NCBI GenBank assembly: GCA_964600525.1
Contig: CAZRJY010000001.1
Coordinates: 1 to 46,506 of the forward strand
DNA: 46,506 bases
DNA from: an uncultured Clostridia bacterium
GTDB taxonomy: Bacteria > Bacillota > Clostridia > Christensenellales > Borkfalkiaceae
Direction of reading: 5' to 3'
The position numbers and the translations under genes are program-made. Positions 7,409 through 24,027 of the stretch are shown here, in pieces. The notes beneath the pieces are model-generated. The model searched no databases. It was given only the letters and a program-made list of their open reading frames with translations, and was not told the origin of the DNA. The number at the start of each line of letters is the position of its first letter. Position 1 is the stretch's first letter.

Positions 7409-7434
7409 AGAGATAATTGAGGAATAAGGTTATT

Positions 7435-10422
7435 ATGAAAAAATTCACGAAATTGATAGCGGCGGCGACCGCGGTAATACTGACGCTCGGCATTGCAGGT
7501 TGCAATACCTCCGATTCGGGCAATAAGAAACCGCCCATCAATCCCTTAGATTACCCCGGCTTTATCAATCCCGAAAATTCCGGCGAAAATATCGCCCCCA
7601 GCGAAAAGTACGTCGTAAACGTGCGCTCAGAGGGCGGTATGCCTCTTGACGGCGTTAAAATCGCCGCAAAAAGAAACGGTCAGGTTATTAAGCGCGGTAT
7701 TTCCAAGGCGGGCAAAATCGAGTTTGCCGTATCATTAGGCGAGTACGACCTCGAAATCGACGAGGAATCCCTTCCCGCGGGCTATCACCTCGACGAGGGC
7801 GCAACCTATAAAACCAACGCGAACAAACGCGAAGATATAACCGTAAAACTTTCCTCGCGCCTTTTAAGCGCTTCGGCTATTATGACTTCGTACGCGCCGG
7901 GCAACATTATGCGCGACTTTACGTTCACCGACTGCGGCGACGGCAATAACGCCGGTCCCAGCTACACTCTTTCCAAACTGTTGGAGACCAAAAAGGCGGT
8001 CGTACTCAACTTCTTCTATACCACCTGCGGTCCCTGCCAGGCGGAGTTCCCCTACTTACAGAACGCATACGACAACCGTACGGCGGACGATATAGAAGTG
8101 CTGGCAATCTGCACGACGTCGATGGGCGACTCCGCACAGTCGGTTGCCAATTTCAGAACTCAGCGCAACCTCAACCTGCCTATGGGCATAGACAGAATAG
8201 GTATATGCTCGGCGTTCGGCGTTTCGGCTTATCCCACCACCGTCGTTATCGACAGATACGGCATGATAGCGTTCAGGACCAACGGCAGCGAGGTTACAAC
8301 CTCGTTCTGGACGGGGCTTTTCAACAGATTTACTTCCCCCGACTACAAGCAGGACCCTTACGGTAACGGCAGCGAGGAAAATCCCGGCACACCCGTAATC
8401 GGCGAGCTCGAAAAACCCGACGTCGAGATGCCCTCCTCCGCAGTTCTGGAACAGGCGGCGCTTGCCGAGCACGTAAACGCGGTATTCAAAGCGTATGACG
8501 ACGAATATTCATGGCCCTGGCTTGCAGGCTCCGACGCCGAGGGCAGCTATATATATTCCTCCAACAAAGGAAAGGGCAATTCGTACGCGATAGTCAACGC
8601 CGAGATAGATATGAAGGAAGGCGAGGTTCTTTCCTTCCAGTACAACGTTTCGACGGAAGCCAACGCCGACTATCTGTACGTCTTACTTGACGGCGACCAG
8701 ATGAACACGGGCTACTCGGGCGAGAGCAACGGCTGGCAGACGGTAGATTTGTACGTTGCCGACCGCGATAAGACCGTAACTCTTTCGTTTGCATACCGCA
8801 AAGACCCGCAGGACCCCGATTCGGGCGTGGGCGACGACGTTGTAAAAATAAGAAACATCAGCCTTGCCGACGCGGCGCAGGGCGGCGTTGTGAAATCGCT
8901 CGACGTTATGCGCGCCTGCGCTTCGGGCGAAATCGAGAACTTTAAGTACGGCTACTACGTAGACTACGAGCTTGCAAGCGACGGCTTCTATCACAAGGTA
9001 CTCTACAACGAGGACGGCACCAAGTCGGATAAGCTCGGTCCCATAATCTATATGACCATCAACCAGCTCTCACCTTGGAGCAATTTGCACGGCAAAAATA
9101 TGACGGCGGCGGACGGCACGACCTACGCGAGCACGATTTTCAGTATGACCGCGCAGAAATACGTCGAAACAAAGGAAACGGACGACGGTAACACTACCTT
9201 TAAGGTAAACATAGGCGGCAAGGACGTTACCGAGGCATACACGGTTTACGTACTCATTATGAACTATATGCCCGCGCCCTTCTACCTTATCCCCGTAACC
9301 GAACAGCTTAAAGGCTGGGCGGACGCGCTTATCAACGACTTTGAAAAGGGCAACGCGCACGACAACGAGTGGCTTGAATTCTGCTATTACTTCGACCACT
9401 ACGGCGCCGAGCACGACGACGCGGCCAACGGCGACGGCGACACCTGCAAGGTTGACGTGGACTACACCAGAGGTCTTACGAAATACAACGCGTACGAGGC
9501 TTTCGAAAAGAACGACGCCGAGCTTGCAAATTCGGAAATGTACAACCAAACCACGCAGAGAAACAAGGCGGTTATCGACTTCCCCCTGCAACTTGCACAT
9601 AACGGCACGTACTATAAATTCAAAGCCGGGGAAGCGGGCGTTTACCAGATACGTTCGTATACCAAGGGTTGCTCGCCCTCGGCAAACGCTACCGCGGACA
9701 ACACGGATTCGTACGTAGTGCCCGACCCCAAGATACTTGTTTACAATAAGGAAGGCGATTTAATCTCGCTGACAAGCGAAGCGCTCGACCACGACGCATA
9801 TAAGGGCGTGGAATACGAGGGTTTCAGCGATTATATAGCTCTGGACGAGAACGAGGAAGTTTACCTCTACCTCTGCACGACGTCGGGAACCAAGTCTTAC
9901 TACGACTTCGAAATATCCTATCTCGGCGAATCGTTCAACAAGATGCTTATATGCTCTACTGGCGGCGGCGTATGGACGTATATCGACAACGTGGAACCGA
10001 TTGTCTGGACGTATATCGGCATCGACGTTATGTACGACGATTTGACTAACTGCTACTACGCTGTCGGCAAAGACGGTAAGATTGACAAGAACCAGCCCGT
10101 ATATATCGATATGCTTTACAGCAGCTTTTTCAGATGCAATATCGAAAAGTATATTCTCGCAACGCTTAAATATATGATTGAGGATTACGCGTTCGAGGAA
10201 TATATCCACCACGGCGAGGACTACCAGCCTATTATGGAGGAAGCTTTGGGCAAATCGACCGAGGGCAAGCAGGAAGGCGACGACCTGTACGGACTTGTTC
10301 CCGCCACGCGCGAAATCGTAGACATTCTGAACATGTTTATCAATCAGAACGTGGACGGCGGCATGGGCGAAGGTAACGGCTGGCTTGCGTTTGCCGTGTA
10401 CGACGCCAAGATGGGCAAATAA
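7435..10422 (+). CDS. large secreted lipoprotein with TlpA/redoxin-type thioredoxin domain (CGPC) and long uncharacterised C-terminal region
   Basis: The ORF-track frame is 7417..10422. The ATG at 7435 is preceded by GAGGAATAAGG. Signal peptide plus lipobox: MKKFTKLIAAATAVILTLGIAGC. Thioredoxin fold: KKAVVLNFFYTTCGPCQAEFPYLQ...YPTTVVIDRYG, with the CxxC at 8026..8037. A tentative jelly-roll/MAM-like segment lies at about 8480-8870 and a tentative PPC-like segment at about 9575-9935. Confidence 0.9.
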   Translation: MKKFTKLIAAATAVILTLGIAGCNTSDSGNKKPPINPLDYPGFINPENSGENIAPSEKYVVNVRSEGGMPLDGVKIAAKRNGQVIKRGISKAGKIEFAVSLGEYDLEIDEESLPAGYHLDEGATYKTNANKREDITVKLSSRLLSASAIMTSYAPGNIMRDFTFTDCGDGNNAGPSYTLSKLLETKKAVVLNFFYTTCGPCQAEFPYLQNAYDNRTADDIEVLAICTTSMGDSAQSVANFRTQRNLNLPMGIDRIGICSAFGVSAYPTTVVIDRYGMIAFRTNGSEVTTSFWTGLFNRFTSPDYKQDPYGNGSEENPGTPVIGELEKPDVEMPSSAVLEQAALAEHVNAVFKAYDDEYSWPWLAGSDAEGSYIYSSNKGKGNSYAIVNAEIDMKEGEVLSFQYNVSTEANADYLYVLLDGDQMNTGYSGESNGWQTVDLYVADRDKTVTLSFAYRKDPQDPDSGVGDDVVKIRNISLADAAQGGVVKSLDVMRACASGEIENFKYGYYVDYELASDGFYHKVLYNEDGTKSDKLGPIIYMTINQLSPWSNLHGKNMTAADGTTYASTIFSMTAQKYVETKETDDGNTTFKVNIGGKDVTEAYTVYVLIMNYMPAPFYLIPVTEQLKGWADALINDFEKGNAHDNEWLEFCYYFDHYGAEHDDAANGDGDTCKVDVDYTRGLTKYNAYEAFEKNDAELANSEMYNQTTQRNKAVIDFPLQLAHNGTYYKFKAGEAGVYQIRSYTKGCSPSANATADNTDSYVVPDPKILVYNKEGDLISLTSEALDHDAYKGVEYEGFSDYIALDENEEVYLYLCTTSGTKSYYDFEISYLGESFNKMLICSTGGGVWTYIDNVEPIVWTYIGIDVMYDDLTNCYYAVGKDGKIDKNQPVYIDMLYSSFFRCNIEKYILATLKYMIEDYAFEEYIHHGEDYQPIMEEALGKSTEGKQEGDDLYGLVPATREIVDILNMFINQNVDGGMGEGNGWLAFAVYDAKMGK

Positions 10423-10457: not shown

Positions 10458-10883
10458 ATGAAAAGGTTTTTAAAGATTTTTGCAATTGCGGTTATCGCCG
10501 TGGCTGCGGCTGTTGCCTGTGTGTTTGTCGGCTGTAAAAAGAACGGCGGCGAAACCAAGTCGGACTACAACTTCACCATCGTATACGAGGGCGGAACTAA
10601 GGACGGTCAGGCCGTAAACGGTAAGACCGACGGAACTATCGAAGGCAAAGTAGCAACCCAGATTTGCACGGACGTATGTATCGGTCTCCCTCTGGCAAAC
10701 ATTTTCCCCGACGAAAACGGTAAGCTTTCACTTTCGCAGGCAAAGGTAAACGAACTGTTCTCATCGGAAACGGACGTCACCGTATTCGTGTTCCACGCTA
10801 TCGGCGTCAACGGTTACAAAAACGACTGCGCGGTTGACGTTAACGGCAAAGGCGATTATACTCTTAAAATTACGGTTGATTGA
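10458..10883 (+). CDS. small lipoprotein, function unknown (three mature-chain Cys)
   Basis: 141-aa ORF. Signal peptide plus lipobox: MKRFLKIFAIAVIAVAAAVACVFVGC. An AAGGAG RBS is present. The start is 35 nt downstream of the TlpA-lipoprotein gene. The mature chain contains ICTDVC and NDC. Confidence 0.8.
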   Translation: MKRFLKIFAIAVIAVAAAVACVFVGCKKNGGETKSDYNFTIVYEGGTKDGQAVNGKTDGTIEGKVATQICTDVCIGLPLANIFPDENGKLSLSQAKVNELFSSETDVTVFVFHAIGVNGYKNDCAVDVNGKGDYTLKITVD

Positions 10884-10898
10884 TTAAAATAAAATTAA

Positions 10899-10938
10899 AC
10901 GCCCCGCGGCATTTGCCGCGGGGCGTTATTTTGTTTTT
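10899..10938. terminator. bidirectional rho-independent terminator shared by the two convergent thioredoxin-encoding operons
   Basis: The sequence is ACGCCCCGCGGCatttGCCGCGGGGCGT followed by tattttgttttt, with an A-rich run upstream for the opposite strand. Confidence 0.8.
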
Positions 10939-10939
10939 A

Positions 10940-12583
10940 TTATCCCAGAGCTTTAATTATTTCGCTTCTTAACAACGCTTCCGAGCAACTGCCTTGCTTT
11001 GCGAAAGTTATTCTGCCCGACGAGTTGAGTATAACCGTCATAGGGTATGCGTACTTGCCGCCGAGCTGAGCGTAGGTATTGAGCTCTTTTGTGTCCTGCG
11101 CGAACACCAGCTTGTAGCTGTTCCACGCCCTTCCGTTCTTGTCCGTTTGGGTATCGAGGAAAACCTGAACGCCCGTCGAAGGGATTGCCGAATAGCTGTG
11201 TATAACGAACATATCTATTTGGTCTATATATTCTTCGTAAACCGCTTCGAACTCGGGCAATTCAGCCTTGCAGGGGTCGCAGTCGGTATACCAGTAATTT
11301 AAAACCGTAACTTTGCTTATGCCGTAAGTGCTTACGCTTTCCGCGTCGTTGTCCGACTTGTAGGTGGAAAGAATAAACTCGGGGCACTTATCGCCGACGG
11401 AATACACAAGTGTGCTTTTATTTTTCATTAGCCCGTAGCCGAGCAACGCGCCTATAAGCACCAGGGTTGCAAGCACCCACGCTACGAACTCGACGACAAA
11501 CCTCGGCTTTTTAAACGCCGCTTTGACCGCCTGCAACTTTTGTCTCTCAGGCTTGTCAGATGCCGCTACCGCCGTTTCCTCAACGGTTACCGTCGGGGAC
11601 GATACGGTTAAATCCGCGTTCGACTTGGCAATTTCCAAAAGCTGTATCTTTTCGCCCTCGACGACAGCAGGTTGTCCGACGGGCGTCGTATTCTTCAAGA
11701 AAATCTTACTGCCCTTCCAGCTTATCGCCTGCACGGGGCAAACGGAGATACATTCGCCGCACTGGATACATTCGTGGTCGCCCACGTGCTTTATATCCAT
11801 TTTACAGCCCTGAACGCACAGTCCGCAGTCGATACACTTGTCTTTGTCCAGCTTGACGCCTAAAAGCGAAATTTTGCAGAACAGCGAGTATATGGCGCCG
11901 AGCGGACAGATAAAGCGGCAGAAAAAGCGGTATATGAAAATGCTCGCAACCACCACTACCACCAGCACGCAGAACTTCCACGTGAACAGGTAACCCAGCA
12001 TTCCGAAAAAGTCGGTGTTGTTGGGATTGGACAACAGCGATATCGCTCCGCCGAACGTGCCTGCGGGGCAGACGTACTTGCAGAACGACGGTATGCCCGC
12101 GTAAATTACGGGTATTGCTATCACTATCGCAAGCAATACGTACTTAAAATAGGACAGCACGCGTGTAAAACGGTTCTTTCTCAATTTGGGAGTGCGGATT
12201 TTGTACAGCAGTTCCTGAATAAGTCCGAAGGGGCACAGAAAGCCGCATATCAGTCTTCCGAGCAGTAACCCGAACAACAGCAGTATGCCGAGTATGTACG
12301 ACGGAGCGGACCTGCCGCTCTGCGCAAGGCTGTCCTGCAACGCACCCAGAGGGCACGCTCCGACGGCGCCGGGGCACGAATAGCAGTTGAGCCCGGGCAC
12401 GCACATCTTTTTGGTGTCGCCCGTATAAATTTTACCCGTGGCAAAGCCCTTCAAATTGGCGTTGGTAAGCAGTGCGGCGTAAAGCTGAATAATTCTGCGC
12501 TTTGTGGGCTTGTGGGCGATGAACCAATTTTTTGGATTGTGGGCGATAAACCAATTTTTAACCTTTGCAAAAAACTTTTTCAT
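10940..12583 (-). CDS. NapH/MauN-type membrane polyferredoxin (2x[4Fe-4S]) fused to a C-terminal TlpA-like thioredoxin domain
   Basis: 547-aa ORF. It has a Cys-rich N-terminus (CVPGLNCYSCPGAVGACPLG) and membrane-proximal CxxCP motifs (CGFLCPFG, CKYVCPAG, CRFICPLG). Two ferredoxin motifs are present: CIDCGLCVQGC and CIQCGECISVCP (about 11714-11851). An extra TM helix (aa 362-386) is followed by the thioredoxin domain VTVLNYWYTDCDPCKAELPEF...YPMTVILN (10943-11407). Confidence 0.9.
   Translation of the reverse strand: MKKFFAKVKNWFIAHNPKNWFIAHKPTKRRIIQLYAALLTNANLKGFATGKIYTGDTKKMCVPGLNCYSCPGAVGACPLGALQDSLAQSGRSAPSYILGILLLFGLLLGRLICGFLCPFGLIQELLYKIRTPKLRKNRFTRVLSYFKYVLLAIVIAIPVIYAGIPSFCKYVCPAGTFGGAISLLSNPNNTDFFGMLGYLFTWKFCVLVVVVVASIFIYRFFCRFICPLGAIYSLFCKISLLGVKLDKDKCIDCGLCVQGCKMDIKHVGDHECIQCGECISVCPVQAISWKGSKIFLKNTTPVGQPAVVEGEKIQLLEIAKSNADLTVSSPTVTVEETAVAASDKPERQKLQAVKAAFKKPRFVVEFVAWVLATLVLIGALLGYGLMKNKSTLVYSVGDKCPEFILSTYKSDNDAESVSTYGISKVTVLNYWYTDCDPCKAELPEFEAVYEEYIDQIDMFVIHSYSAIPSTGVQVFLDTQTDKNGRAWNSYKLVFAQDTKELNTYAQLGGKYAYPMTVILNSSGRITFAKQGSCSEALLRSEIIKALG
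12510..12563 (-). repeat. 27-nt in-frame tandem duplication at the 5' end of the polyferredoxin-thioredoxin gene
   Basis: The two copies are ttgtgggcgatgaaccaattttttgga and ttgtgggcgataaaccaatttttaacc, with a partial third ttgtgggc at 12502-12509. They encode KNWFIAHNP-KNWFIAHKP. Confidence 0.85.
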
Positions 12584-12584
12584 A

Positions 12585-13397
12585 TCAACCCAGCCCTATA
12601 CATTCGGTACAGATATTTATCGCCTTGATAAACACCGCGCGCGCGTTGCCGTTCAACGCGCCCCAGATTATAAACGCCACGGCAATCACCGCAACCGCTA
12701 TGCGTATGCCGAGTATTACCCACTTATTTTCAAATACTGCGCTTACCGTCTGCAAAAGGTTATTTTTGCTTTGCGGCTTCTGTCCCTTTGTCAACTTTTG
12801 AACGGCGGGCAAAACCGCTTTAACCGCAAACTTTTCGTAAACCGCCGCACCGCAGATTACAAGTAGCCCTGCGAACACGCACGGAAATACGTGCTTTACC
12901 ATATTCAGAATTTCGTGCGTTACGTTTTTGTTGGGGAAGTTCGACGGTATGCAAAGATATACCAAGCCGTACACGCACGCGAGCGCAAACAGCGCCCACG
13001 CCGCGCATTTCAGCGCGAATATTACCTTTTTGGACTGAGCTACCTGCGAAAACTCGGCTTCCAGTCCTTCGGGAGCGGCCACTGGCATACGTTTATCAAG
13101 CCGCGCAAGCTGTAAGTCGGGACATATTTTGCGCGCCTTTTCCTTTACGGGGAAAACCTCCCACAGCACAAAGCCGACCACTATTCCAGCAATCCACAGC
13201 CAGAAAAAGAGAGCTATTTTAGAGAGCGCGTTCACAACCCTTTCGCGCGTAAAAACGTCGCCCGAATACCCGGCCGCCGTACCCGAAAAATACAGCGACA
13301 GCACCTGCCATATGAACAGCGCGCCCACCACCGCGGTGAATACGCCGAATATTATTCCGTAGCTTAAACGCACGGATTTGCAAGTTTTTTCCTTCAT
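12585..13397 (-). CDS. polytopic membrane protein with C-terminal CxxC tail (…NICTECIGLG), function unknown
   Basis: The ORF-track frame is 12585..13460. The ATG at complement(13395..13397) is preceded by GAGGAAATT. Several hydrophobic helices are present. The protein ends in ICTECIGLG. Its stop is 1 nt from the polyferredoxin start, which suggests an operon. Confidence 0.8.
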   Translation of the reverse strand: MKEKTCKSVRLSYGIIFGVFTAVVGALFIWQVLSLYFSGTAAGYSGDVFTRERVVNALSKIALFFWLWIAGIVVGFVLWEVFPVKEKARKICPDLQLARLDKRMPVAAPEGLEAEFSQVAQSKKVIFALKCAAWALFALACVYGLVYLCIPSNFPNKNVTHEILNMVKHVFPCVFAGLLVICGAAVYEKFAVKAVLPAVQKLTKGQKPQSKNNLLQTVSAVFENKWVILGIRIAVAVIAVAFIIWGALNGNARAVFIKAINICTECIGLG

Positions 13398-13413: not shown

Positions 13414-13442
13414 ATTATAACAACGCGCGCGCGTAAAGTCAA
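13414..13442 (-). promoter_or_regulatory. candidate consensus promoter of the CxxC-membrane protein / polyferredoxin-thioredoxin operon
   Basis: On the minus strand: TTGACT-17 nt-TATAAT. The spacer contains the palindrome ACGCGCGCGCGT (13423-13434). GAGGAA and the ATG follow within 16 nt. Confidence 0.5.
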
Positions 13443-13453
13443 CATTTTCCCGC

Positions 13454-13483
13454 TTGACAAAGGTTGCCAAATACCTTTATAAT
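13454..13483 (+). promoter_or_regulatory. candidate promoter of the cyuA-like gene
   Basis: TTGACA (13454-13459)-18 nt-TATAAT (13478-13483). It lies back-to-back with the minus-strand promoter, with the two -35 boxes 11 bp apart. Confidence 0.5.
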
Positions 13484-14841: not shown

Positions 14842-15102
14842 TTAACTTACCCAAAGCCAGGCGATTAATCCCATAATACCGAATACCAGAATTACAATTA
14901 AAAACACGGGCGCATAGGCGGCAAACGCCGCGCGCACAAGCTGTCTGTATTCCTTTCGGGACATTTTCTGCCTGTGCTTTTTCATTCCGCTTTGACTGCG
15001 TTTTTTTAAATTCGGGTCGTACCAACGGAACCCCTCCACGTTCATATCCGCAAAGGTGGTTTCCATATCCAAATCGTCTTGTTTTTTATTCTTTTTCGAC
15101 AT
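14842..15102 (-). CDS. small basic protein with C-terminal TM helix, function unknown
   Basis: 86-aa ORF. Its start overlaps the oppF stop by 17 nt. The C-terminal helix is APVFLIVILVFGIMGLIAWLWV. A terminator hairpin follows immediately. Only a weak RBS is present, so the start (M1 versus M13) is uncertain. Confidence 0.45.
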   Translation of the reverse strand: MSKKNKKQDDLDMETTFADMNVEGFRWYDPNLKKRSQSGMKKHRQKMSRKEYRQLVRAAFAAYAPVFLIVILVFGIMGLIAWLWVS

Positions 15103-16354
15103 TATCGGTTTTTACTTCTTCAACCTGAGGATTTTCTGCCGCGGTCACACCGTCTGTATCCGCTTCGGTCGCACCGTCTGTATCCGCCGCGGTCGCACCG
15201 CTCTTCTTTTTGAATATGTTCTTAACGGTTGTTACTATCTTGGTTTTAGCCACGTTCCAGGGCTTCTTCGCTTCCTTTTCGGCGCGCGCCCTCTCTTCCT
15301 CGTCGTTGATATCAGCCTGCGCAAGCAGTCTTTCGGTGTCCTCGGCGCTGTTGTAAAGATGGCACGAGCAGAAATGCCCTTCCTCGATTTCCCTGTACTC
15401 GGGTGCAATGCGGCCGCAGATTTCCATACAGTGCTCGCAGCGCGTGTGGAATTTACAGCCCTTGGGCGGATTGACGGGCGAAGGAATATCGCCCTTTAAC
15501 ATTATTCTGTTCATCTTCACGTGCGGATTGGGCACGGGAACCGCCGAGAAAAGCGCCTTGGTGTAAGGGTGCAGAGTATTATTGAATATCCTATCCTTAC
15601 TGCCGTACTCGACAATGTTGCCGAGATACATTACGCCTACGTCGTCGGATATGTGCTTGACAACCGACAAGTCGTGCGAAATGAATATGTATGTCAGACC
15701 GAGCTTCTCCCTCAGCTCGATAAGCATATTTATAACCTGCGCCTGTATGGATACGTCGAGCGCGGATACCGGCTCGTCGCATACGACAAGCTTGGGTTTA
15801 AGCGCCAAGGCGCGCGCGATACAGATACGCTGTCTTTGTCCGCCCGAGAACTCGTGCGGATAACGCTCGAAATAATGGGGCTGTAAGCCGCACATATTCA
15901 TAACGTTAAGAACGTAATCGTGGAAGCCCGCTCTGTCCACAAGCCCGTGCTGGCGCGCGGACTCGCCGATTATCTCGCCTACCGTAAGGCGGGGCGAAAG
16001 ACTCGCGTACGGGTCCTGGAATATCATCTGCATATTGGGGCGCAGTTTGTCGAACTCGCGGTTTTTGAGCTTAGCCACGTCCTGACCGTCGAATATAATC
16101 TCGCCCTCTACGCCGTCGTACAGTCTTAAAAGCGACCTGCCCATGGTAGATTTGCCGCAGCCCGACTCGCCGACTATGCCGAGGGTTTTGCCCTTGTACA
16201 GCGTGAACGATATGCCATCTACCGCCTTTAAAAACTTGGTCGGTTTGCCGAAAAGGTTGGTTTCGACGGGGAAATATTTCTTTAAATTCTTGACTTCGAG
16301 GAGCGGTTCGCCCGCAGCGGTATTTTCCAATACGACTTCTTCGTTATTGTCCAT
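15086..16354 (-). CDS. oppF: oligopeptide ABC transporter ATP-binding protein OppF-type, with ~90-aa charged/acidic C-terminal tail
   Basis: Walker [10 protein letters not shown], signature FSGGQRQR and Walker B LVVCDEPVSALD are present. The Opp C-terminal Cys motif is present: CKFHTRCEHCMEICG...HFCSCH. It is the second ATPase of an ABCDF-ordered cluster. Confidence 0.9.
   Translation of the reverse strand: MDNNEEVVLENTAAGEPLLEVKNLKKYFPVETNLFGKPTKFLKAVDGISFTLYKGKTLGIVGESGCGKSTMGRSLLRLYDGVEGEIIFDGQDVAKLKNREFDKLRPNMQMIFQDPYASLSPRLTVGEIIGESARQHGLVDRAGFHDYVLNVMNMCGLQPHYFERYPHEFSGGQRQRICIARALALKPKLVVCDEPVSALDVSIQAQVINMLIELREKLGLTYIFISHDLSVVKHISDDVGVMYLGNIVEYGSKDRIFNNTLHPYTKALFSAVPVPNPHVKMNRIMLKGDIPSPVNPPKGCKFHTRCEHCMEICGRIAPEYREIEEGHFCSCHLYNSAEDTERLLAQADINDEEERARAEKEAKKPWNVAKTKIVTTVKNIFKKKSGATAADTDGATEADTDGVTAAENPQVEEVKTDNVEKE
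15143..15200 (-). repeat. 24-nt in-frame tandem repeat (about 2.4 copies) in the oppF C-terminal tail
   Basis: The copies are ggtcacaccgtctgtatccgcttc, ggtcgcaccgtctgtatccgccgc and ggtcgcaccg. They encode ...ADTDGATEADTDGVT... Confidence 0.85.
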
Positions 16355-17645
16355 TGCCGTCCTCCTTCGTATCCTCGTACAGATAGCACGCCACCTTATG
16401 AGTAGGCGACACCTGCACGTAGTCGGGGTATTCGCCCGCGCACTTTTCCTTGCACATTTCGCATCTGTCGCGGAAATAGCAGTAATCGGGCATATTTATG
16501 GGGTTGGGAACAAAGCCCGGTATGCAGTAAAGTTTGTCCACTTCGGCGTCTACCGTCGGCTTGCTCTTTTGAAGTCCTATCGTGTAAGGGTGCATGGGGT
16601 GGTCGAAAATGTCCTCCGCCGTGCCCATTTCGATAACTCTGCCCGCGTACATTACAACAACAAAGTCAGCCATTTCGGCAACTACGCCCAAGTCGTGCGT
16701 AATCAGCATTATCGAACCGTTAATCTTGTGCTTGATGTCCCTTAAAAGGTCGAGTATCTGCGCCTGAATGGTAACGTCTAGCGCGGTCGTAGGCTCGTCG
16801 GCAATAATCAGCTTGGGGTTGCACAAAAGCGCGATTGCTATCATAACCCTCTGGCGCATACCGCCCGAAAGCTCGTGAGGGTATTTTTTGTAAACGCCCT
16901 CCGCATCGGCTATGCCGACCATTTTGAGCATGTTTATGCTGTGCGCCTTTACCTGCTTTTTGGATATGCCTTCTATGTGTAAAAGTCCGACCTCGTCAAG
17001 CTGGTTGCCTATGGTGAACACGGGGTTCAAGGAGGTCATAGGCTCCTGGAAAATCATTGCGATTTCTCTGCCGCGGATTGAGCGCATAGCCTCGGTAGGC
17101 ATCTTTGCGATGTCTACTACTCTGTCCTCCATCTCGTAAACGTTGCCGCCGAGTGAGTTCTTTTTTATTACGGGCTTGCCCTTTTCGTCGAGCTTGGTGC
17201 GCTCCTGTCCGTCTTCGCCGGTTTCGGTTTCGTACACGGGGATTTTCTTGCCGCGCGCGTCGCGCTTGAAAAGACTTGCCTTAAATCTTATTGAGCCGCT
17301 TACAATCTGTCCGCTGGGCGCCTGCACAAGCTGCATTAAGGAAAGCGAAGTTACGCTTTTGCCGCAGCCCGATTCGCCTACCACGCCCACGGTAGAGCCC
17401 GCGGGTATCGAGAAGGTTACGCCGTTTACCGCCTTGACCGTGCCTGCGTCCGAAAAGAAATAGGTGTGAAGGTCGTCGAACTCGATAATGTTGTTGTCGT
17501 CCTTCATTTCGGTCGTGTAGTCGTCGGGCTTGGCGCGGCGCTTCTTCTGCTTTTCGTAGTAGCGGATAGCCTTGGAATTTTCTTTGGCAATTGCGCGCGA
17601 TTCCGAGCGGGATATATAGTGCTTTTTATCCTTGTTTGTCGCCAT
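16344..17645 (-). CDS. oppD: oligopeptide ABC transporter ATP-binding protein OppD-type, with N-terminal extension and internal ~50-aa insert
   Basis: Walker [13 protein letters not shown]-loop AMIFQEP, signature LSGGMRQR and Walker [13 protein letters not shown] are present. The C-terminal Cys motif is [14 protein letters not shown]...KVACYL. There is an extra ~52 aa at the N-terminus and an insert at about 17124-17276. Confidence 0.9.
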
Positions 17646-17647
17646 AA

Positions 17648-18763
17648 TTACCTCTTCATCTTAGGGTCGAAGGCGTCGCGCAAGCCGTCCCCGACAAAGT
17701 TAAACGCCAGTATGGCAAGCGTTATGCACACGCCCGCGCCCACCCACAGATTGGGATAGTACTGCCTGTACGTGTTGTTGCTTGCAAGGTTTATAAGGTT
17801 GCCCCAGGTAGCCGTGCCGTAGGGCGCGCCGATGTTCAAGAAGCCCAGCGTCGCTTCGGTCAGAATTATACTGCCTAAGCCCAAAGTCATAGATACGATA
17901 AGCTGGGGTATTACGTTGGGCATAAGGTGCTTGAATATTTTCGAGAAGGTCGAAAGTCCCGAAGCCTTGGCGGCAAGCATGAACTCCTGCTCGCGCAAAG
18001 ACAAAATCTGTCCGCGCACAAGCCTTGCCGTTCCTACCCAGCCGATTAGACAGAGCACCATCATCATATAATACAGCTTTGCTATGCTGTCGCCCAAGCC
18101 GCATGCGGTGAAGATTACCGACAGAATAAGCATTATGGGAAGCGACGGTATACAGCTTAAAATATCGACTATACGCATTATAAGGTTGTCTACCCACTTG
18201 CCGAAATAGCCCGCAAGACCGCCCATTACAACGCCGATAAGCGTTTCGATTATAACGACTACGAAGCCGATTGTAAGCGAAACTCTGCCGCCGTACATAA
18301 GGCGCGTAAGCACGTCGTAGCCCATATCGTCGGTGCCCATCCAGTGCGCCGCGCTGATGTCGCCCATCTTAACCACCTGCGGAAGTCTTACCGACACCGC
18401 AAGCGCGTTGTGCGCCTCGTCGCCTATGTAGTATTTTATGGGCGACACCGAAATAAGTTCCTTTATGCGCGAAGGGTCGCTGTCCAGCTTGGTGCCGCCG
18501 TTAGCCGCCCAGGGCGAGAAAACCGGTCCCAAAAACGCGAACAGGAACAATAATACTATGGTCACAAGTCCGATAACGGACAGCTTGGAACGGAAAAATC
18601 TCTTTAAAACGGTCATCCAGGGCGAAAGCACCTTTGCCCTTTCGGTAAGGTTTTCGCCGTGCAAATCGTCGCCGCCGACCTGCGCGTCGTTCGCTACGGT
18701 CGTCTCGGTGATTGTTGCGTTCTCGTCCGCCAATACTTCGGCTTCGGTATTCTTATCTTCCAT
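17648..18763 (-). CDS. oppC: oligopeptide ABC transporter permease OppC-type with acidic N-terminal extension
   Basis: 371-aa polytopic ORF. It carries an EAA-type loop, QEFMLAAKASGLSTFSKIFKHLMPN, typical of OppC/DppC. An AAGGAGG RBS is present. Confidence 0.9.
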   Translation of the reverse strand: MEDKNTEAEVLADENATITETTVANDAQVGGDDLHGENLTERAKVLSPWMTVLKRFFRSKLSVIGLVTIVLLFLFAFLGPVFSPWAANGGTKLDSDPSRIKELISVSPIKYYIGDEAHNALAVSVRLPQVVKMGDISAAHWMGTDDMGYDVLTRLMYGGRVSLTIGFVVVIIETLIGVVMGGLAGYFGKWVDNLIMRIVDILSCIPSLPIMLILSVIFTACGLGDSIAKLYYMMMVLCLIGWVGTARLVRGQILSLREQEFMLAAKASGLSTFSKIFKHLMPNVIPQLIVSMTLGLGSIILTEATLGFLNIGAPYGTATWGNLINLASNNTYRQYYPNLWVGAGVCITLAILAFNFVGDGLRDAFDPKMKR

Positions 18764-18775
18764 ACGCTGCCTCCT

Positions 18776-19786
18776 TTACTTGCCGAGCTTGACCCTGGGG
18801 TCGACTACCGCGTACATAATATCGGCGAACAGAACGCCGATAACCGTGAGCACGGCAAGGAACATATTGTAGCCCATTGCAAGGAACACGTCGCCGCTCA
18901 AAAGCGCTTTGTATGCAATGTTGCCGATACCGGGCAGGTCGAACACCTGCTCGGTTATCATTGCGCCGCCGAACAGCGTCGGAAGCGTGAACGACAACTG
19001 GGTTACAAGGGGTATCATAGTGTTGCGGAAAACGTGCTTGTATACGACCTTTCCTTCCGAAAGACCTTTTGCGCGCGCCGTTCTTATGTAGTCGGCGTTG
19101 AGCACTTCGAGAGTGTTCGTACGCGTATAGCGCATAAGTCCGCCGATGCTTAAAAGCACCATAACCGTCATGGGAAGAATGAGGTGCCAGATTTTATCGA
19201 TGAAAATCTCGAACTCCGTTCCCATTACACCGCTGGTTAAGCCGTGCGTTTCGAACCAGCCCAAATCGACCGCAAACCATTTGATAAACAGGTTGCCGAG
19301 GAAGAAGGACGGGAATGCTATGCCGACCATGCAGAGTACGGTTGCCACGTAGTCGAGCTTGCCGTACTGGTTGACCGCGCACTTTACGCCGAGGGGAATT
19401 GCAATTGCCATTTCCAGAAGCAAAGCCACGAACGAAATGCCGAACGACAGCCACATATACTGTCCGATAACGTTCTGCACGGGTGCGCCCTGGTGCTGGA
19501 AGGATATGCCCATATCGCCCTGCAAGAACCTGCCGAGCCACATAAAGTAGCCCTTGAATATTCCCCAGGCGGAGTCGTCTTCCAACCCGTAGGGCGCAAG
19601 CTGTTCCCTAAGCAGTCTTTCCGCTTCCTCATCGCTGTCGATGGGGTCGTAGTTAGCTCGCAACGACACAAACTGGTCCTTCAAATAGTTGGCGGGCATA
19701 CACCTTATGAGAACATATAATATTACCGATACGCCGAACAGAATAAGAAGCGCCAGCAGTAATCTTTTGATTATATATTTAACCAT
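18776..19786 (-). CDS. oppB: oligopeptide ABC transporter permease OppB-type
   Basis: 336-aa ORF. The N-terminus MVKYIIKRLLLALLILFGVSVI and the EAA loop ADYIRTARAKGLSEGKVVYKHVFRN are typical of OppB/DppB. Confidence 0.9.
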   Translation of the reverse strand: MVKYIIKRLLLALLILFGVSVILYVLIRCMPANYLKDQFVSLRANYDPIDSDEEAERLLREQLAPYGLEDDSAWGIFKGYFMWLGRFLQGDMGISFQHQGAPVQNVIGQYMWLSFGISFVALLLEMAIAIPLGVKCAVNQYGKLDYVATVLCMVGIAFPSFFLGNLFIKWFAVDLGWFETHGLTSGVMGTEFEIFIDKIWHLILPMTVMVLLSIGGLMRYTRTNTLEVLNADYIRTARAKGLSEGKVVYKHVFRNTMIPLVTQLSFTLPTLFGGAMITEQVFDLPGIGNIAYKALLSGDVFLAMGYNMFLAVLTVIGVLFADIMYAVVDPRVKLGK

Positions 19787-19810
19787 CTTTTACTCCGAAG
19801 AGATTTTTAT

Positions 19811-22480
19811 TTATTTAACGTAGTTCAACTTCCAAAGTTCGCTGATAGGTCCCATATTGTAGGAGGGTTCCGCAGTCATAGTGCTTCTGTCGAGAACGCC
19901 CTTTCTGAATATGCACAAATCGTTACGCTGATAGGTGGGGAATTCAACCGCAAGCTCCATTATAAGGTCGAGTGCGCCGCCGTCGCCGCCGTATATGTTC
20001 GAACGCGTACGTTCGTTAAGCGTCTGTCTGCCTTCGATAATCTTCTGGTTTAAACGGGTTGCAATATCGTACTCCTTGGCAAACTTATCGGGGTTGTTGA
20101 TTATGCCGTCCTTGTTCCAGTTGTTGGTGCTCGACGCTCTGGAATTGATACTGTAAATCTGGTAAGGGTCGGGGTCGATACTCGACGACCAAGCCGCCGC
20201 CCATACTTGAAGTTTACCCGAAACAAGCTTTGTAAGCGCCTGAGGGTCGTTACCTACCGAAATGTTGAAGCCCGCTTCTTCCAGGAAGTTCTTGGCATAG
20301 GTGAACATTGCGTATGCGGGGTGGTCGGTAGATTCGCCCGCGATTACGAAGCTGTAACTGAGATTTTGTTTTGCGCCGTTCTTATACCAGCCGTCAGACC
20401 TCTTTTCCCATACGCCGTTGCTGTCCGACTCGATAAAGTCTATAAGCTCGTCGGCGGTTGCCGCAGGCTCGTAATAAGGAGTTTCCTGCTTGCTTCTGTG
20501 TCCGTAAGCCGGATTCCATACCCAGGACGTAAGCGTCATAGGTCTGTTGATTATGTTTACAAGCGAATCGCCGTAGTATTCCAAAAGCGCCGAGGTGTCG
20601 AAAGACTTCATTATAGCGCGCCTTATGGTTATATCCTCGATGTACCTGGGGTTGATACCGATATAGCCGTAGCCGCCCGTTTCGTAAGTGATATGCTCGA
20701 ACTTGTCGGGGCTGAACGCAGCCTGGTTATCCGACTTTGCGGTAGGCTCGCCGTAGTCGATTTCGCCCGTTTTAAGCGAGTTTACTATCTGGTCGTCGCT
20801 TGTTACCTTGTAGGTTACGTATTTGATTTTAGCGTTCTCTACCTGCTTGCCCATCGTCTCGAAATAGGGGTTCCTCTCGAAGAACGCCATATAGTTGTAC
20901 CAGAAATTGTCGTGGGTTACGCCCGTAGAGCTGTAATTGTAGGTGCAGCATCTGTAAGCACCGGCGCCCACGGGAACGCCGTTTTTGCTGCCCGCGGAAA
21001 GCACGGTGGACGAGAAGCCGCTGTCCCTGTACTTAACGCCGAAGTTTCTTGCGTCCGGGGTGTAAACAACGCCGCTTTCGTAGTCGTCCATAGCCAGCTT
21101 GACGTAGTCTACTCCGTCATAAGTGCCCGAATAATAGTGCATGGGCGCTACCGCGAAGCCGAAGTTCCACTTTGCCTTGGGGTCTACGCCGACGATTTCA
21201 ATCTTTAAAATGTCGTGTTCCTCGTCGTAGGTCTTGCCGTTGAACTCTTTGGAGTGCGAAACGGTTATACCCGAGATATTGTTTATACGCTGTGCGTCGG
21301 TTTCGTTTTCCTTTGTCTGCTCGTCCTTAATAAACTCGCTTAACGCGGTGCCCGACGTAGCGTTGTAGGTGAGAATGTTGTGGATATTCGAATCAATCGT
21401 ATTGCTGTTATACAGATACTTTACCGCATAATCCTTTGTAACGGCAAGCTTTGCATTCTCTCTGCTCGTGCCGGGGTTGTTTGCGATATATTCGTCAATC
21501 TTTGCGTCGGTAATATTCTCGGCAACGTCGTTGAGTATTCTCTGTCCGCGCTGAGTAACTACGCCCGTTTCGTAATTGGGGTCGATTTCGGTGGGATACT
21601 TGCCGTTGTCGTCCTTAAAGCGCACAGGTATGCCGTTGTCGTTGAGCTTGGTCTGCTCGCCGAAAACCTGCTCCATGAAATAGTACGCCTGCCAGACTTC
21701 GGTGAAATAATAGTCCTTATAGGTTTCCGCCCAGCTTGTCGCAATAGCGTTCCAGTCGGTGGTGAGCTCTTCTTCATAGAGCTTCTTTACCTTTGCAAGG
21801 TCCTCTTTCTGAGCGGCGGAAAGCTCGCCCTGCGTAGTGCCGTTAGACCAGCGTATAAGCGCGTCGATACGGCTCTTTGCCGCTGCGTAATACTTGGTCA
21901 TGGAAATGTCGGAATCCTCGCTTGCGCCCTCTTTATTCTGTCTGTACGACTGCAAGCCCTTTATTTTGGTCGAATAAATGGTACTCGAACCGCTGTAAAG
22001 AGGGTCGAGATATACGTAAAGGTTAAACAGTACGTCCATAACCGTGAGGTCTACGCCGTCGGAGAACTTCATACCTTTCTTTATTAAGAACTCGTATGTA
22101 GTACTGCCCTCGATGTCCACCGAGCTTTCGTTGAAATCGACGCTCGAACCGTCGCCCGTACCAAGCTTAACACCCGCCTTGTTGTAGTAGGTTTCCAGAT
22201 AATCGAGCGCAACCGTAGGCTGGTTTTCGCCGACTACAAGCTTACCGTCCTCGTTGGTGGTGATAAGCGATACCTGGGTAAGTCCCGCAATCGTACCGTC
22301 GTTCATCGAGGTGTAGAACAGGGGATTGAATTTTTCGTCGCACGCGCCTATCGAAAGCCTTAAAGGTGATTTCTCGGGGTCGCGGCCCGAATTCTTTTTA
22401 CACGCCGCCGCACAAAGCGTGCCCGCCGCGAGCGCGCCCGCAAGTCCCGTGCATAAAAGTGCTTTAAATATCTTTTTCAC
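19811..22480 (-). CDS. oppA: ABC transporter substrate-binding lipoprotein, family 5 (OppA/DppA-type), expanded to 889 aa
   Basis: GTG start with an AAGGAGGA RBS. Signal peptide plus lipobox: LAAGTLCAAAC. SBP_bac_5-like segments are present (KKGMKFSDGVDLTVMDVLFNLYVYLDP; ISGITV...ILKIEIVGVDPKAKWNFGFAVAPMHYY). A ~220-aa insert lies between them (about 21281-21943). Confidence 0.85.
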   Translation of the reverse strand: MKKIFKALLCTGLAGALAAGTLCAAACKKNSGRDPEKSPLRLSIGACDEKFNPLFYTSMNDGTIAGLTQVSLITTNEDGKLVVGENQPTVALDYLETYYNKAGVKLGTGDGSSVDFNESSVDIEGSTTYEFLIKKGMKFSDGVDLTVMDVLFNLYVYLDPLYSGSSTIYSTKIKGLQSYRQNKEGASEDSDISMTKYYAAAKSRIDALIRWSNGTTQGELSAAQKEDLAKVKKLYEEELTTDWNAIATSWAETYKDYYFTEVWQAYYFMEQVFGEQTKLNDNGIPVRFKDDNGKYPTEIDPNYETGVVTQRGQRILNDVAENITDAKIDEYIANNPGTSRENAKLAVTKDYAVKYLYNSNTIDSNIHNILTYNATSGTALSEFIKDEQTKENETDAQRINNISGITVSHSKEFNGKTYDEEHDILKIEIVGVDPKAKWNFGFAVAPMHYYSGTYDGVDYVKLAMDDYESGVVYTPDARNFGVKYRDSGFSSTVLSAGSKNGVPVGAGAYRCCTYNYSSTGVTHDNFWYNYMAFFERNPYFETMGKQVENAKIKYVTYKVTSDDQIVNSLKTGEIDYGEPTAKSDNQAAFSPDKFEHITYETGGYGYIGINPRYIEDITIRRAIMKSFDTSALLEYYGDSLVNIINRPMTLTSWVWNPAYGHRSKQETPYYEPAATADELIDFIESDSNGVWEKRSDGWYKNGAKQNLSYSFVIAGESTDHPAYAMFTYAKNFLEEAGFNISVGNDPQALTKLVSGKLQVWAAAWSSSIDPDPYQIYSINSRASSTNNWNKDGIINNPDKFAKEYDIATRLNQKIIEGRQTLNERTRSNIYGGDGGALDLIMELAVEFPTYQRNDLCIFRKGVLDRSTMTAEPSYNMGPISELWKLNYVK

Positions 22481-22515: not shown

Positions 22516-24027
22516 TTAAGATTGCTCTTCCTGTAACTTGGTAAATGTGTTGGTTCCGCTCAGCTTAACGCCCGTAAACTGCGCAAGGAACGCCTCGTCG
22601 CTCGCCGCGCCGCCGAACAGCCAGTTGCTGCGGTCGTCGCCGATAGCGTTATGGATTGTGGGCGTGCCCTGATAGGTTGCGGTAACGTTTTCTATCTTCA
22701 AATCCAAATTTGCCGCCGCCGCTTTTACCTCGGCGCTGATTGCATAGAATTCGAACGAAGTATTACTGATAGGTATGGTGATTTTTATGTCTTTAAGCGT
22801 TAAGCCCGAAACGCTGAACTGCTCGCTTACCGTGCCGAGCATCGAATAGCACAGACCCTGCTTGGGCGTGGGCACGTTTACGGTAAGTCCGCTTATGGTG
22901 TGGGGCTTATCGCATACTATCGTCGCGTTTGCCGCCCTCGTCGTCTTTTCCTTTGCGTTGAGCGCGGCCGTCGTACCGTATTCTATATCGTTTATGACAA
23001 AGAATTTTTTCGGAGTGCGCGCGTTGAGCGAGCCGAACATGCTTTCCGCGTCCGCCGCCGTCCTTACCACCGTCCAGTCGCCCACGATATAGTGGCAGTA
23101 AACTCTGGGGTTTTCGGCGTCGGGGTCGGTGGGTCTGGGAATATAATTCAATCCCTCGCTTAAATCGGCGTTCAGCGTCTTTACGAAGGTCAGTCCGTTT
23201 ATCTTTACCTGCTCGTTACTCTGCGGAGTTTCACCGTCGTCGGCGATGGGGAAGGATACAAGCACACTGCCGTGTTTAAAGGTCGATTTACCGTCCTCCG
23301 AGGTATATTCAGTACCGTCGTCCAGAACGTTGCCCTTTTCGTCGGTTATTCTCAGATGGTATTCTATCTCCTTCTTGGGCAACCAGCGCGCACACACGAT
23401 AAGTCCGTGCGCGTCGTCGATATTTTTCTCGATTTTCGTGCCGCCGGTAACTCTTTTATCCGAACAGACTATCGTAACGTCCTTTTCGAGTATCTTTTCG
23501 TCTACAAGCTCGCCCTGCGCGTTTTCCCTTGCGAATACGGGGCGGTCGGTCTTGGAGTCGGTTACGGGGTAGCCGTTCGCTTTGAGAACGGGGAACACCC
23601 TGACGGTGATATTGTCGGGATTTTTTTCGTCGAACTTCTCCGCAGGCTTGGACGCATCGTTTTCGTCGGGCGTATAAGTGTACTCATACATGATTTCGCC
23701 CGCGTGGGCGCCGCCCTCGGGATAAGTTGCAGGCTCGTACCAGCCCTCAAAGTCCCACGAGCCGCGCTGCACCTTCATACCTCTGCTCTTTTCGGTAATT
23801 TCAAAGAAGGGCACGCCGCCGTCTTCGCTCTTAAAGTAAATTTCCCTTACTTTCAGCGAGGTGGAAGTGTCGAAATATCCGCCGTTCGAATAGTAAGTTA
23901 CGTGCGTGTCGTAACCCGCGAGCAATGAGCTGCGCCCCGGTCTGCCTATCTTACAGCCGACAAGAGTGCAGGCAAGACACGCCGCCGCAAATACTATTAG
24001 CAAGTAAACCTTTAATCTCTTAGTCAT
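22516..24027 (-). CDS. lipoprotein, function unknown (tentative Listeria-Bacteroides/InlB B-repeat-like segment)
   Basis: 503-aa ORF. Signal peptide plus lipobox: LIVFAAACLACTLVGC. The segment THVTYYSNGGYF...RGSWDFEGWYEP resembles the B-repeat pattern ending in GY.F.GWY. Its start overlaps the stop of the S8 giant gene (ATGACTAA). Confidence 0.85.
   Translation of the reverse strand: MTKRLKVYLLIVFAAACLACTLVGCKIGRPGRSSLLAGYDTHVTYYSNGGYFDTSTSLKVREIYFKSEDGGVPFFEITEKSRGMKVQRGSWDFEGWYEPATYPEGGAHAGEIMYEYTYTPDENDASKPAEKFDEKNPDNITVRVFPVLKANGYPVTDSKTDRPVFARENAQGELVDEKILEKDVTIVCSDKRVTGGTKIEKNIDDAHGLIVCARWLPKKEIEYHLRITDEKGNVLDDGTEYTSEDGKSTFKHGSVLVSFPIADDGETPQSNEQVKINGLTFVKTLNADLSEGLNYIPRPTDPDAENPRVYCHYIVGDWTVVRTAADAESMFGSLNARTPKKFFVINDIEYGTTAALNAKEKTTRAANATIVCDKPHTISGLTVNVPTPKQGLCYSMLGTVSEQFSVSGLTLKDIKITIPISNTSFEFYAISAEVKAAAANLDLKIENVTATYQGTPTIHNAIGDDRSNWLFGGAASDEAFLAQFTGVKLSGTNTFTKLQEEQS

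Follow-up and report, generated by a model that had tools for sequence, protein, structure and literature searches.

A NapH-like polyferredoxin joined to a ResA/TlpA-like domain: a candidate transmembrane reductant conduit in uncultured gut Clostridia

To our knowledge, every textbook route by which extracytoplasmic thioredoxin-like proteins are reduced depends on a transporter of the DsbD/CcdA superfamily, with cytoplasmic thioredoxin as the source of electrons. These routes serve cytochrome c maturation, disulfide isomerisation, the repair of methionine sulfoxides and sulfenates, and spore cortex synthesis; the known members of the ResA/TlpA class are recharged by CcdA or DsbD, and the membrane domain DsbD_TM (PF02683) has one conserved cysteine in each of two transmembrane (TM) helices. 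Here we describe a two-gene operon from an uncultured Clostridia bacterium of the Borkfalkiaceae (Christensenellales), which lies in a window of 46,506 nucleotides (nt), the whole stretch of DNA that was analysed (assembly GCA_964600525.1, contig CAZRJY010000001.1, positions 1 to 46,506 of the forward strand). Its second gene, an open reading frame (ORF) at 10940-12583 on the reverse strand, encodes a protein of 547 amino acids (aa) that joins a NapH-like polyferredoxin, an extra TM helix and a ResA/TlpA-like domain, and the gene directly upstream (12585-13397, reverse strand) encodes a membrane partner with a CxxC tail. With moderate confidence, we read this operon as a two-subunit transmembrane reductant conduit, similar to DsbD/DipZ in function, which is built on a NapH-type scaffold and feeds its own outer thioredoxin domain.

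Meheust et al. 2021 (PMC8238504) proposed that NapH-like modules fused to outward domains that bind flavin mononucleotide (FMN) conduct electrons across the membrane, and whether the Cx3CP motifs of NapH, NosR and RdhC form disulfides or bind clusters is undecided (PMC5928378). In RnfA/RnfE and NqrD/NqrE, electrons leave a cytoplasmic ferredoxin-like subunit and reach an extracellular redox domain by way of an intramembrane iron centre held by four cysteines (PMC9588780). No literature was found on CD1871A, the protein family to which the partner belongs, on polyferredoxin-thioredoxin fusions, or on iron-sulfur (Fe-S)-dependent envelope thiol reduction. The original prediction, made from the sequence of this locus, had taken the thioredoxin fusion to be new, which holds for the literature and does not hold for the databases, where the architecture is already present under generic names such as '4Fe-4S binding protein', 'redoxin family protein' and 'redoxin domain-containing protein'. 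What is new is the thioredoxin version of a NapH-like conduit combined with a DsbD-like logic.

The fusion protein and its family

The joining of a polyferredoxin and a thioredoxin in one ORF, as first read from the sequence, is confirmed by Pfam, which recognizes three Fer4_5 stretches (E 8e-19), a Fer4/Fer4_7 match at aa 243-292, and Redoxin (PF08534) and AhpC-TSA (PF00578) matches at aa 396-532. The last two reach 36.0 bits (gathering threshold, GA, 26.6) and 31.4 bits (GA 26), respectively, both above threshold, and the NCBIfam matches, to NapH/MauN, NosR and ResA, were all sub-threshold. The chain begins with a basic N-terminus, predicted by its charge to be cytoplasmic, followed by a first helix (aa 28-49) of weak hydrophobicity, the counterpart of NapH TM1 in the alignment (together 12437-12583; this and all coordinates of the two genes refer to the reverse strand). 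Motif scan and alignment place next the invariant Cys4 motif, C61-x5-C67-x2-C70-P-x6-C77-P (12350-12403), in a loop matching the first periplasmic loop of NapH. It is followed by TM1 (12230-12304; Pfam, profile alignment, charge), TM2 with its outer loop (12065-12154; profile alignment, charge) and TM3 (11903-11980; profile alignment), each with a Cys motif of its own: C113-x3-C117-P at the cytoplasmic end of TM1, C168-x3-C172-P on the loop after TM2, and C222-x3-C226-P at the cytoplasmic end of TM3.

The cytoplasmic ferredoxin-type domain (11708-11857) holds two [4Fe-4S] motifs, C250/253/256/260 and C272/275/278/282-P, in a Pfam match that AlphaFold models with a confidence (pLDDT) of about 80-89. 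A cytoplasmic linker (11510-11707), poorly conserved and modelled with low confidence, ends in a basic stretch before TM4 (aa 359-386; 11426-11509), which by hydropathy, AlphaFold and charge is predicted to take the chain from the cytoplasm to the outside. The helix expected between the two parts was thus recovered both by hydropathy (aa 359-388) and in the AlphaFold model (358-384). The protein finishes with the ResA/TlpA-like thioredoxin-fold domain (10943-11398), assigned by Pfam, AlphaFold and structural matches, with the active site C435-D-P-C438-K-A-E441-L-P (codons 11270-11281) and P514 in the cis-proline position. As for the Cys motifs named at the outset, the N-terminal one, the two CxxCxxCxxxC and the active site WYTDC435DPC438 stand as described, and only the three TM-adjacent ones had been misread as CxxCP: they are C113GFLCP, C168KYVCP and C222RFICP, that is, C-x3-C-P motifs of the NapH/NosR/RdhC type.

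The fusion is widespread. A single-sequence database search returned 7,858 relatives, and in the best 120 of these, for which architecture was read, Fer4_5, Fer4 and Redoxin occur together in 119, down to 49% identity, the exception being a partial record; the same architecture is present in all 120 of the best matches of a profile search. The matches stem from independent NCBI, ENA, Logan and JGI assemblies, and the fusion as a whole is present in over 200 protein clusters and in no fewer than 80 GTDB species, so that the assembly artefact initially considered as an explanation can be dismissed. A GTDB survey with one genome per species, from which the best 80 loci were taken, found the fusion architecture over nearly the full protein length in all 80. 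The hosts, strict gut anaerobes, are uncultured Christensenellales (Coproplasma, Borkfalkiaceae, Christensenellaceae) and uncultured Oscillospirales (Oscillospiraceae, Faecousia, Acutalibacteraceae, Ruminococcus).

The 18 motif cysteines of the polyferredoxin part are invariant in alignments of 25, 72 and 109 sequences, in which column identity falls to 28-30% (a mean of 30% in the largest), and motifs kept invariant at such a level of divergence are far beyond chance. C435, C438 and E441 show no variation in the two smaller alignments and are kept in at least 90% of the 109-sequence alignment, which takes in multi-Redoxin proteins that are hard to align, and P514 is invariant. The Cys pairs, whose conservation in homologues the original prediction called for, are thus conserved throughout the polyferredoxin part and nearly so in the thioredoxin domain. 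A HMMER search of 1.84 billion representatives gave 441 clusters at E<=1e-30, and after clustering at 50% identity a C-terminal thioredoxin CxxC was present in 35 of the 76 complete representatives and absent from the remaining 41. The relatives without thioredoxin, of about 280-300 aa, retain the Cys4 motif, the three Cx3CP and both ferredoxin motifs, as well as the CxxC-tail partner, and at the other extreme stand proteins of up to 1,242 aa in which the Redoxin domain is repeated two or three times in tandem.

The thioredoxin domain is of the ResA type by several measures. Its best structural match is ResA (1su9, TM-score 0.83), followed by DsbE/CcmG, StoA, Etrx1/2, DsbF and the C-terminal domain of DipZ, mainly extracytoplasmic TlpA-like proteins, the best of them reductases or isomerases; SdbA (5um7), a TlpA-fold oxidase, is also among the matches. 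The active site, with its CxxC at the N-terminus of a helix, fits the reductive ResA-type pattern CxPCxxE(L/F)P. Assignment to the ResA subfamily NF002854 is not reached (42.3 bits against a cut-off of 170), and no ccs or res genes were found near the operon.

Two features of the N-terminus deserve mention. The 5' end of the fusion gene carries a near-perfect tandem duplication of 27 nt (12506-12559, reverse strand; KNWFIAHNP/KNWFIAHKP), which is present as a single copy in all homologues inspected, sits in the basic N-terminus and leaves the motifs unaffected; strain variation is one possible source of it, and an assembly or duplication event at this spot another. A twin-arginine K-R-R-[IL]-I-Q at aa 28-33 (12485-12502, reverse strand), whose NapH counterpart is RRLCQ, opens the first helix and is followed by the Cys-rich loop. 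R29 is invariant, R30 is conserved in at least 90% and Q33 is conserved. The motif could be a plain positive-inside anchor or a hint of unusual, Tat-like insertion of a cofactor-loaded loop, and together with the weak hydrophobicity of the helix it may hint at an unusual insertion route.

The family also includes variants of the thioredoxin part. In proteins of 700-750 aa (loci L003, L005 and L012 and related loci; P0020), TM4 leads into a degenerate thioredoxin fold from which the CxxC is lost (FWRTDLEES), and an intact second thioredoxin domain (WYTDCDPC) follows it. A relative of 668 aa (P0325) continues from the polyferredoxin core through a TM helix and a Redoxin domain into a DsbD_N-like domain that is sub-threshold in Pfam (23 bits, GA 25). 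Its motifs HLYTKD and YQSCNESSCF resemble YYLYRKQ and YQGCADAGFCY of E. coli DsbD, and pairwise BLASTP of its C-terminus against that protein gave no significant similarity. On this sub-threshold match, P0325 would mimic a DsbD in gamma-to-alpha order with the beta domain replaced by a polyferredoxin. Pfam matches to GSHPx and SCO1 in multi-domain relatives were set aside as weak overlaps on Redoxin domains and were not read as pointing to a peroxidase or copper function.

Predicted topology and the CxxC-tail partner

The original prediction placed the thioredoxin domain on the side of the membrane opposite to the Fe-S domain, and the same is predicted from the charge pattern of 109 homologues, the profile alignment with NapH, and the hydrophobicity of TM4. 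Alignment of the family profile with E. coli NapH by hhalign (probability 98.4%, E 4.7e-15) equates the helix at aa 28-49 with NapH TM1 and C113-x3-C117-P and C222-x3-C226-P with the first and second Cx3CP motifs of NapH, and both ferredoxin motifs align with those of NapH. The Cys4 motif appears as an insertion in the NapH TM1-TM2 loop, and C168-x3-C172-P falls on the Cys-less 'WEWINP' of the NapH TM3-TM4 loop, which like the TM1-TM2 loop is periplasmic in NapH. The termini of NapH, both of its Cx3CP motifs and its Fe-S domain are said to be all cytoplasmic, as Brondijk et al. 2004 and Kern & Simon 2008 reportedly found.

The positive-inside test, in which lysine plus arginine per residue was computed by segment over the 109 homologues, gave an alternating pattern. 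The N-terminus (0.27), the TM1-TM2 loop (0.25) and the segment before TM4 (0.41) are predicted to lie inside, and the Cys4 loop (0.06), the loop with C168/C172 (0.03) and the segment after TM4 (0.07) are predicted to lie outside. The thioredoxin domain is thus predicted to be outside the cell, and the six family-specific invariant cysteines of the fusion, along with the two of the partner, are predicted to lie on or in the outer leaflet. An AlphaFold model built with 25 close homologues had a mean pLDDT of 59 and an unusable membrane module; with 109 database homologues the mean rose to 71.6, the TM4 helix was confident and the thioredoxin domain exceeded 90. Foldseek matches to the model were confined to the thioredoxin domain, and a PDB sequence search returned no solved NapH-like membrane module.

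The partner is a polytopic membrane protein of 270 aa with about 5 TM helices and the C-terminus ...KAINICTECIGLG; an alternative TTG start at 13460 is open and would give a product of 291 aa. The junction of the two genes (...GGT TGA T ATG...) leaves exactly 1 nt between the partner stop and the fusion start, and the protein ends in INICTECIGLG, both as noted when the locus was first described. It was also stated at that time that small CxxC-tail proteins sit upstream of such polyferredoxins in Clostridia, and this proved correct: with 47.7 bits the partner exceeds the cut-off (32) of NF040920, 'CD1871A family CXXC motif-containing protein' (partner aa 255-291, model positions 2-38 of 38), and an ORF with a C-terminal C-x-x-C-[IV]-G-[LM]-G lies directly upstream of the polyferredoxin in 75 of 82 related loci.

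In an alignment of 60 partners, the sole conserved part is the last TM helix with its amphipathic tail (12588-12722), which bears C-T-E-C (codons 12600-12611) and is predicted to be on the outer face; both tail cysteines are 100% conserved and the rest of the protein is poorly conserved. Partners differ in size, some with about 5 TM helices and others with 3 or 1, and the free-standing forms of 42-79 aa have one TM helix and a basic N-terminus. These small partners directly precede polyferredoxins, thioredoxin-less in locus L087 and thioredoxin-bearing in L085, with genes that overlap or abut. Since only the last helix and tail are conserved and single-TM forms exist, the functional unit would be one TM helix plus a CxxC tail. 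An outer position of the tail is predicted from the lysine plus arginine content, which drops from 0.21 per residue over the 20 residues that precede the last TM helix to 0.08 in the tail, and from the short forms, with their odd helix number and basic N-terminus. A TlpA-like tail motif shared by the partner (CTECIGLG) and a neighbouring lipoprotein of 141 aa (CTDVCIGLP) was rejected as a coincidence, as it is unconserved in homologues.

Proposed electron path and competing explanations

If the operon is a reductant conduit, a low-potential cytoplasmic donor, most plausibly reduced ferredoxin, would load the two cytoplasmic [4Fe-4S] clusters, and electrons would then cross the membrane by way of the 12 additional conserved cysteines of the family: at the inner face those of two Cx3CP motifs, and at the outer face those of the Cys4 motif, the third Cx3CP and the CxxC tail of the CD1871A-type partner. 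They would end on the tethered ResA-like domain outside the cell, which would reduce disulfides or sulfenates of envelope proteins, probably including a thioredoxin lipoprotein of 1001 aa encoded beside the operon. The membrane cysteines may hold Fe-S or Fe centres, in the manner of RnfA/E and NqrD/E, or work as a dithiol cascade, and the four inner and eight outer cysteines would fit up to three extra clusters and a disulfide cascade equally well. The last step may be an FTR-like cluster-to-disulfide conversion. In FTR and heterodisulfide reductase, a redox-active disulfide is reduced by two electrons that reach it one at a time through an Fe-S cluster beside it.

The reductive direction is favoured by the ResA-type site with its conserved Glu, by the low-potential clusters, by the anaerobic hosts and by the modularity of the family, the sub-threshold case of P0325 included. 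With ferredoxin-type clusters at about -400 mV and TlpA-like disulfides at about -200 to -270 mV, the clusters can reduce the disulfides, and transfer the other way is not possible. Several points weigh against the conduit, nonetheless. The family is known here from sequence and predicted structure, and we know of no machinery by which a membrane protein inserted through Sec would have Fe-S clusters assembled on its outer side. Roughly half of the members have no thioredoxin and yet keep all the cysteines, which implies that the core has another or more general acceptor. The first helix (aa 29-49) is weakly hydrophobic, with a mean Kyte-Doolittle value of +0.39, so that the outer side of the Cys4 loop rests on the charge pattern and on NapH homology, and the NapH-like TM region of the AlphaFold model built with 109 homologues is of low confidence (pLDDT 45-65). 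Furthermore, some TlpA-fold proteins, such as S. gordonii SdbA, are oxidases.

This last point bears on an opposite reading, in which the outer thioredoxin would oxidise thiols of secreted proteins, in the manner of VKOR-thioredoxin proteins or SdbA, and electrons would enter by way of the cysteines and Fe-S clusters and end on an acceptor in the cytoplasm or the membrane. A membrane redox module, an extra TM helix and an outer thioredoxin do reproduce the layout of bacterial VKOR-thioredoxin proteins, SdbA is among the structural matches, and the conserved Cys pairs of the neighbouring lipoproteins could be structural disulfides. Nevertheless, we consider this direction quite unlikely, given that the active site has the reductive CxPCxxE(L/F)P pattern with its Glu conserved, that the potential of ferredoxin-type clusters is too low to take electrons from a dithiol, that the hosts are strict gut anaerobes, and that the sub-threshold DsbD_N-like domain of P0325 follows the thioredoxin in the reductive DsbD order. 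Less easily set aside, though still unlikely in our judgement, is a role of the thioredoxin in maintenance or assembly, by which it would keep the eight outer cysteines reduced or help to load a metal or cluster, perhaps recharged by a CcdA encoded elsewhere, and the conduit would serve a different acceptor. The 41 of 76 complete representatives that retain every cysteine and the partner without a thioredoxin argue that the core works in its absence, and ResA, TlpA and Sco-type domains classically ready the cysteines of other proteins for cofactor insertion. Covalent fusion in at least 80 species, with one to three tandem Redoxin domains, is more simply explained by an acceptor series, however, and the lack of a CcdA-like gene in 82 flanks gives a weak argument in the same direction.

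The analogy with CcoG, a cupric reductase with Fer4_5 and two [4Fe-4S] clusters, raises the further idea of metal handling, in which Cu(II), Fe(III) or another metal would be reduced at the membrane by the module and then bound or handed over by the Sco/TlpA-like domain. Relatives give weak NCBIfam matches to CcoG, SCO1-SenC overlaps a Redoxin domain in P0123, and feoAB genes lie near the operon in locus L001; the CcoG and Sco matches are far below their cut-offs, however, the thioredoxin domain best matches ResA and DsbE, and these strict anaerobes are without the Cu oxidases served by CcoG, Sco and TlpA, which makes a metal role very improbable. We give least credence to an error in the topology, with TM4 non-spanning or the orientation inverted and a cytoplasmic thioredoxin exchanging electrons with the Fe-S domain inside the cell. 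The topology is a prediction and the membrane module is where AlphaFold is least sure, but TM4 is a strongly hydrophobic and confident helix, a basic stretch precedes it throughout the family, and the characterised members of the TlpA/ResA class are extracytoplasmic.

Returning to the reductant conduit, its most specific form would be a third mechanistic class of envelope thiol reduction, independent of DsbD/CcdA, in which a heterodimeric Fe-S 'wire' fed by ferredoxin electrons reduces the outer thioredoxin in FTR-like fashion. Such a wire would comprise the two cytoplasmic [4Fe-4S] clusters, one cluster on the two inner Cx3CP motifs and one or two on the eight outer-leaflet cysteines, and, if true, would mean Fe-S cofactors on the outer face of a Gram-positive membrane; we hold this form to be doubtful. 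In its broader form, the conduit suggests a direct connection, in many abundant and uncultured Clostridia of the gut, between low-potential Fe-S (ferredoxin) electrons and an outward-facing thioredoxin. If true, this would explain how envelope proteins of strict anaerobes are protected against oxidation, give the long-enigmatic Cx3CP motifs of NapH, NosR and RdhC a testable function, and provide a role for two sets of proteins that now have generic annotations, the small CD1871A proteins and the '4Fe-4S binding protein' neighbours beside them.

Genomic surroundings and relation to known systems

The two genes appear to form a transcriptional unit of their own. A promoter-like site, recognized by consensus match (TTGACT-17-TATAAT with TG; 13414-13442, reverse strand), lies upstream of the partner gene, and a strong bidirectional terminator (10898-10927), a GC-rich hairpin of 13 bp with T-runs on both strands, separates the operon from convergent lipoprotein genes, so that the two elements frame a two-gene operon. 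A second promoter-like site (13454-13483, forward strand) stands back to back with the first. Gene clustering of the related loci gave only the partner, lipoproteins, an ABC transporter and an SDH_alpha gene as recurrent neighbours.

The larger of the convergent genes (7417-10422, forward strand) encodes the lipoprotein of 1001 aa, whose ResA-like domain at aa 162-293 (CGPCQAEFP) was identified from the ORF by Pfam and NCBIfam and whose C-terminal residues, about 700 of them, gave no Pfam, NCBIfam or PDB sequence match. A large thioredoxin lipoprotein is convergent with the operon in 27 of 83 sequences (the 82 loci and the window), distant clades included, and this candidate is probably a client of the outer thioredoxin domain. 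The smaller lipoprotein, of 141 aa (10458-10883, forward strand), has a Cys pair (CTDVC), matches no family and co-occurs in 11 loci. Related lipoproteins, some small and some large, recur beside the operon and carry a Cys-bearing beta-sandwich domain, and in P0296 a thioredoxin-less polyferredoxin is followed by a TM helix and then by a fused Cys-bearing beta-sandwich domain of the same kind.

On the other side, a gene of the SDH_alpha family (PF03313; 13454-14779, forward strand), with its true start probably at an ATG at about 13499, is divergent from the operon and kept in 16 loci. The family, which we take to resemble L-cysteine desulfidases, makes a link to thiol metabolism possible. Beyond it (15086-22480, reverse strand) lies an Opp-type ABC transporter with two ATPases, two permeases and a substrate-binding protein of 889 aa, assigned by synteny with locus L001, where the Pfam families were read; it is syntenic with the operon in close relatives such as L001 and probably has no part in the redox system. 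Two giant proteins predicted to be at the surface follow on the reverse strand, one of 2622 aa (24020-31888) whose weak NCBIfam matches, far below threshold, are to LPXTG-anchored serine peptidases and leucine-rich-repeat adhesins, and one of 1567 aa (31912-36615) with no family match.

That no ccdA/dsbD-like gene would be found in the window agrees with Pfam and NCBIfam, which found no DsbD/CcdA family member among the scanned ORFs, all of them outside 15086-22480; nap, nos, mau and rdh genes are likewise absent from the scanned ORFs. No membrane ORF with the CcdA-like motif [SG][PA]C..P occurs within 10 kb on either side of the operon in the 82 loci, a negative that says almost nothing on CcdA independence, since about one match would be expected by chance.

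The fusion shows no Pfam match to a VKOR or DsbB membrane domain, and the FTR and heterodisulfide reductase invoked for its last step are analogies, to which no sequence similarity was detected. RnfA/E and NqrD/E would share with it the pairing of membrane-helix cysteines from two subunits; their folds are unrelated to that of the fusion, and cluster binding in the fusion family is hypothetical. With ResA, TlpA, CcmG, StoA and Etrx1-2 the thioredoxin domain has in common its fold (TM-score 0.83 to ResA), the CxPCxxE(L/F)P site and a membrane-tethered and, as predicted, outward-facing position, but it forms the C-terminus of an Fe-S membrane protein instead of being held by a simple signal-anchor or lipid.

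As for the scaffold, the fusion resembles NapH, NosR, RdhC (PceC) and MauN in its homologous four-helix core, in the two Cx3CP motifs of the cytoplasmic face and in the two C-terminal ferredoxin clusters. The homology is at superfamily level only, with 66.2 bits against a cut-off of 213 for TIGR02163 and 52.9 against 234 for NF007013. Unlike NapH, the fusion has six extra invariant cysteines in its outer loops, a further TM helix that bears a thioredoxin at the C-terminal end, and a CD1871A-type protein as its obligatory partner, and it stands in no nap, nos or rdh gene context. It is modular in the way of the flavinylated NapH-like systems (PMC8238504), with an outward redox domain fused to the PF12801 core that is present in the fusion, and it differs from them in that neither FMN_bind nor ApbE matched the fusion, the partner or the flanking ORFs.

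In its proposed function, the fusion parallels DsbD, DipZ, ScsB and CcdA. The fusion does not belong to the DsbD superfamily, as neither Pfam nor NCBIfam gives it a DsbD_TM (PF02683) or CcdA match; its membrane part is a NapH-type polyferredoxin with two cytoplasmic [4Fe-4S] motifs, ten further conserved cysteines and a separate CxxC-tail subunit, and its donor would be a one-electron Fe-S carrier, not cytoplasmic thioredoxin. What would unite them is the logic proposed here for the fusion, a membrane module that supplies cytoplasmic reducing power to a tethered or partner thioredoxin-fold domain outside, and in DipZ and DsbD, as in the fusion, the thioredoxin-like domain is C-terminal to the membrane part, the C-terminal domain of DipZ being itself among its structural matches.

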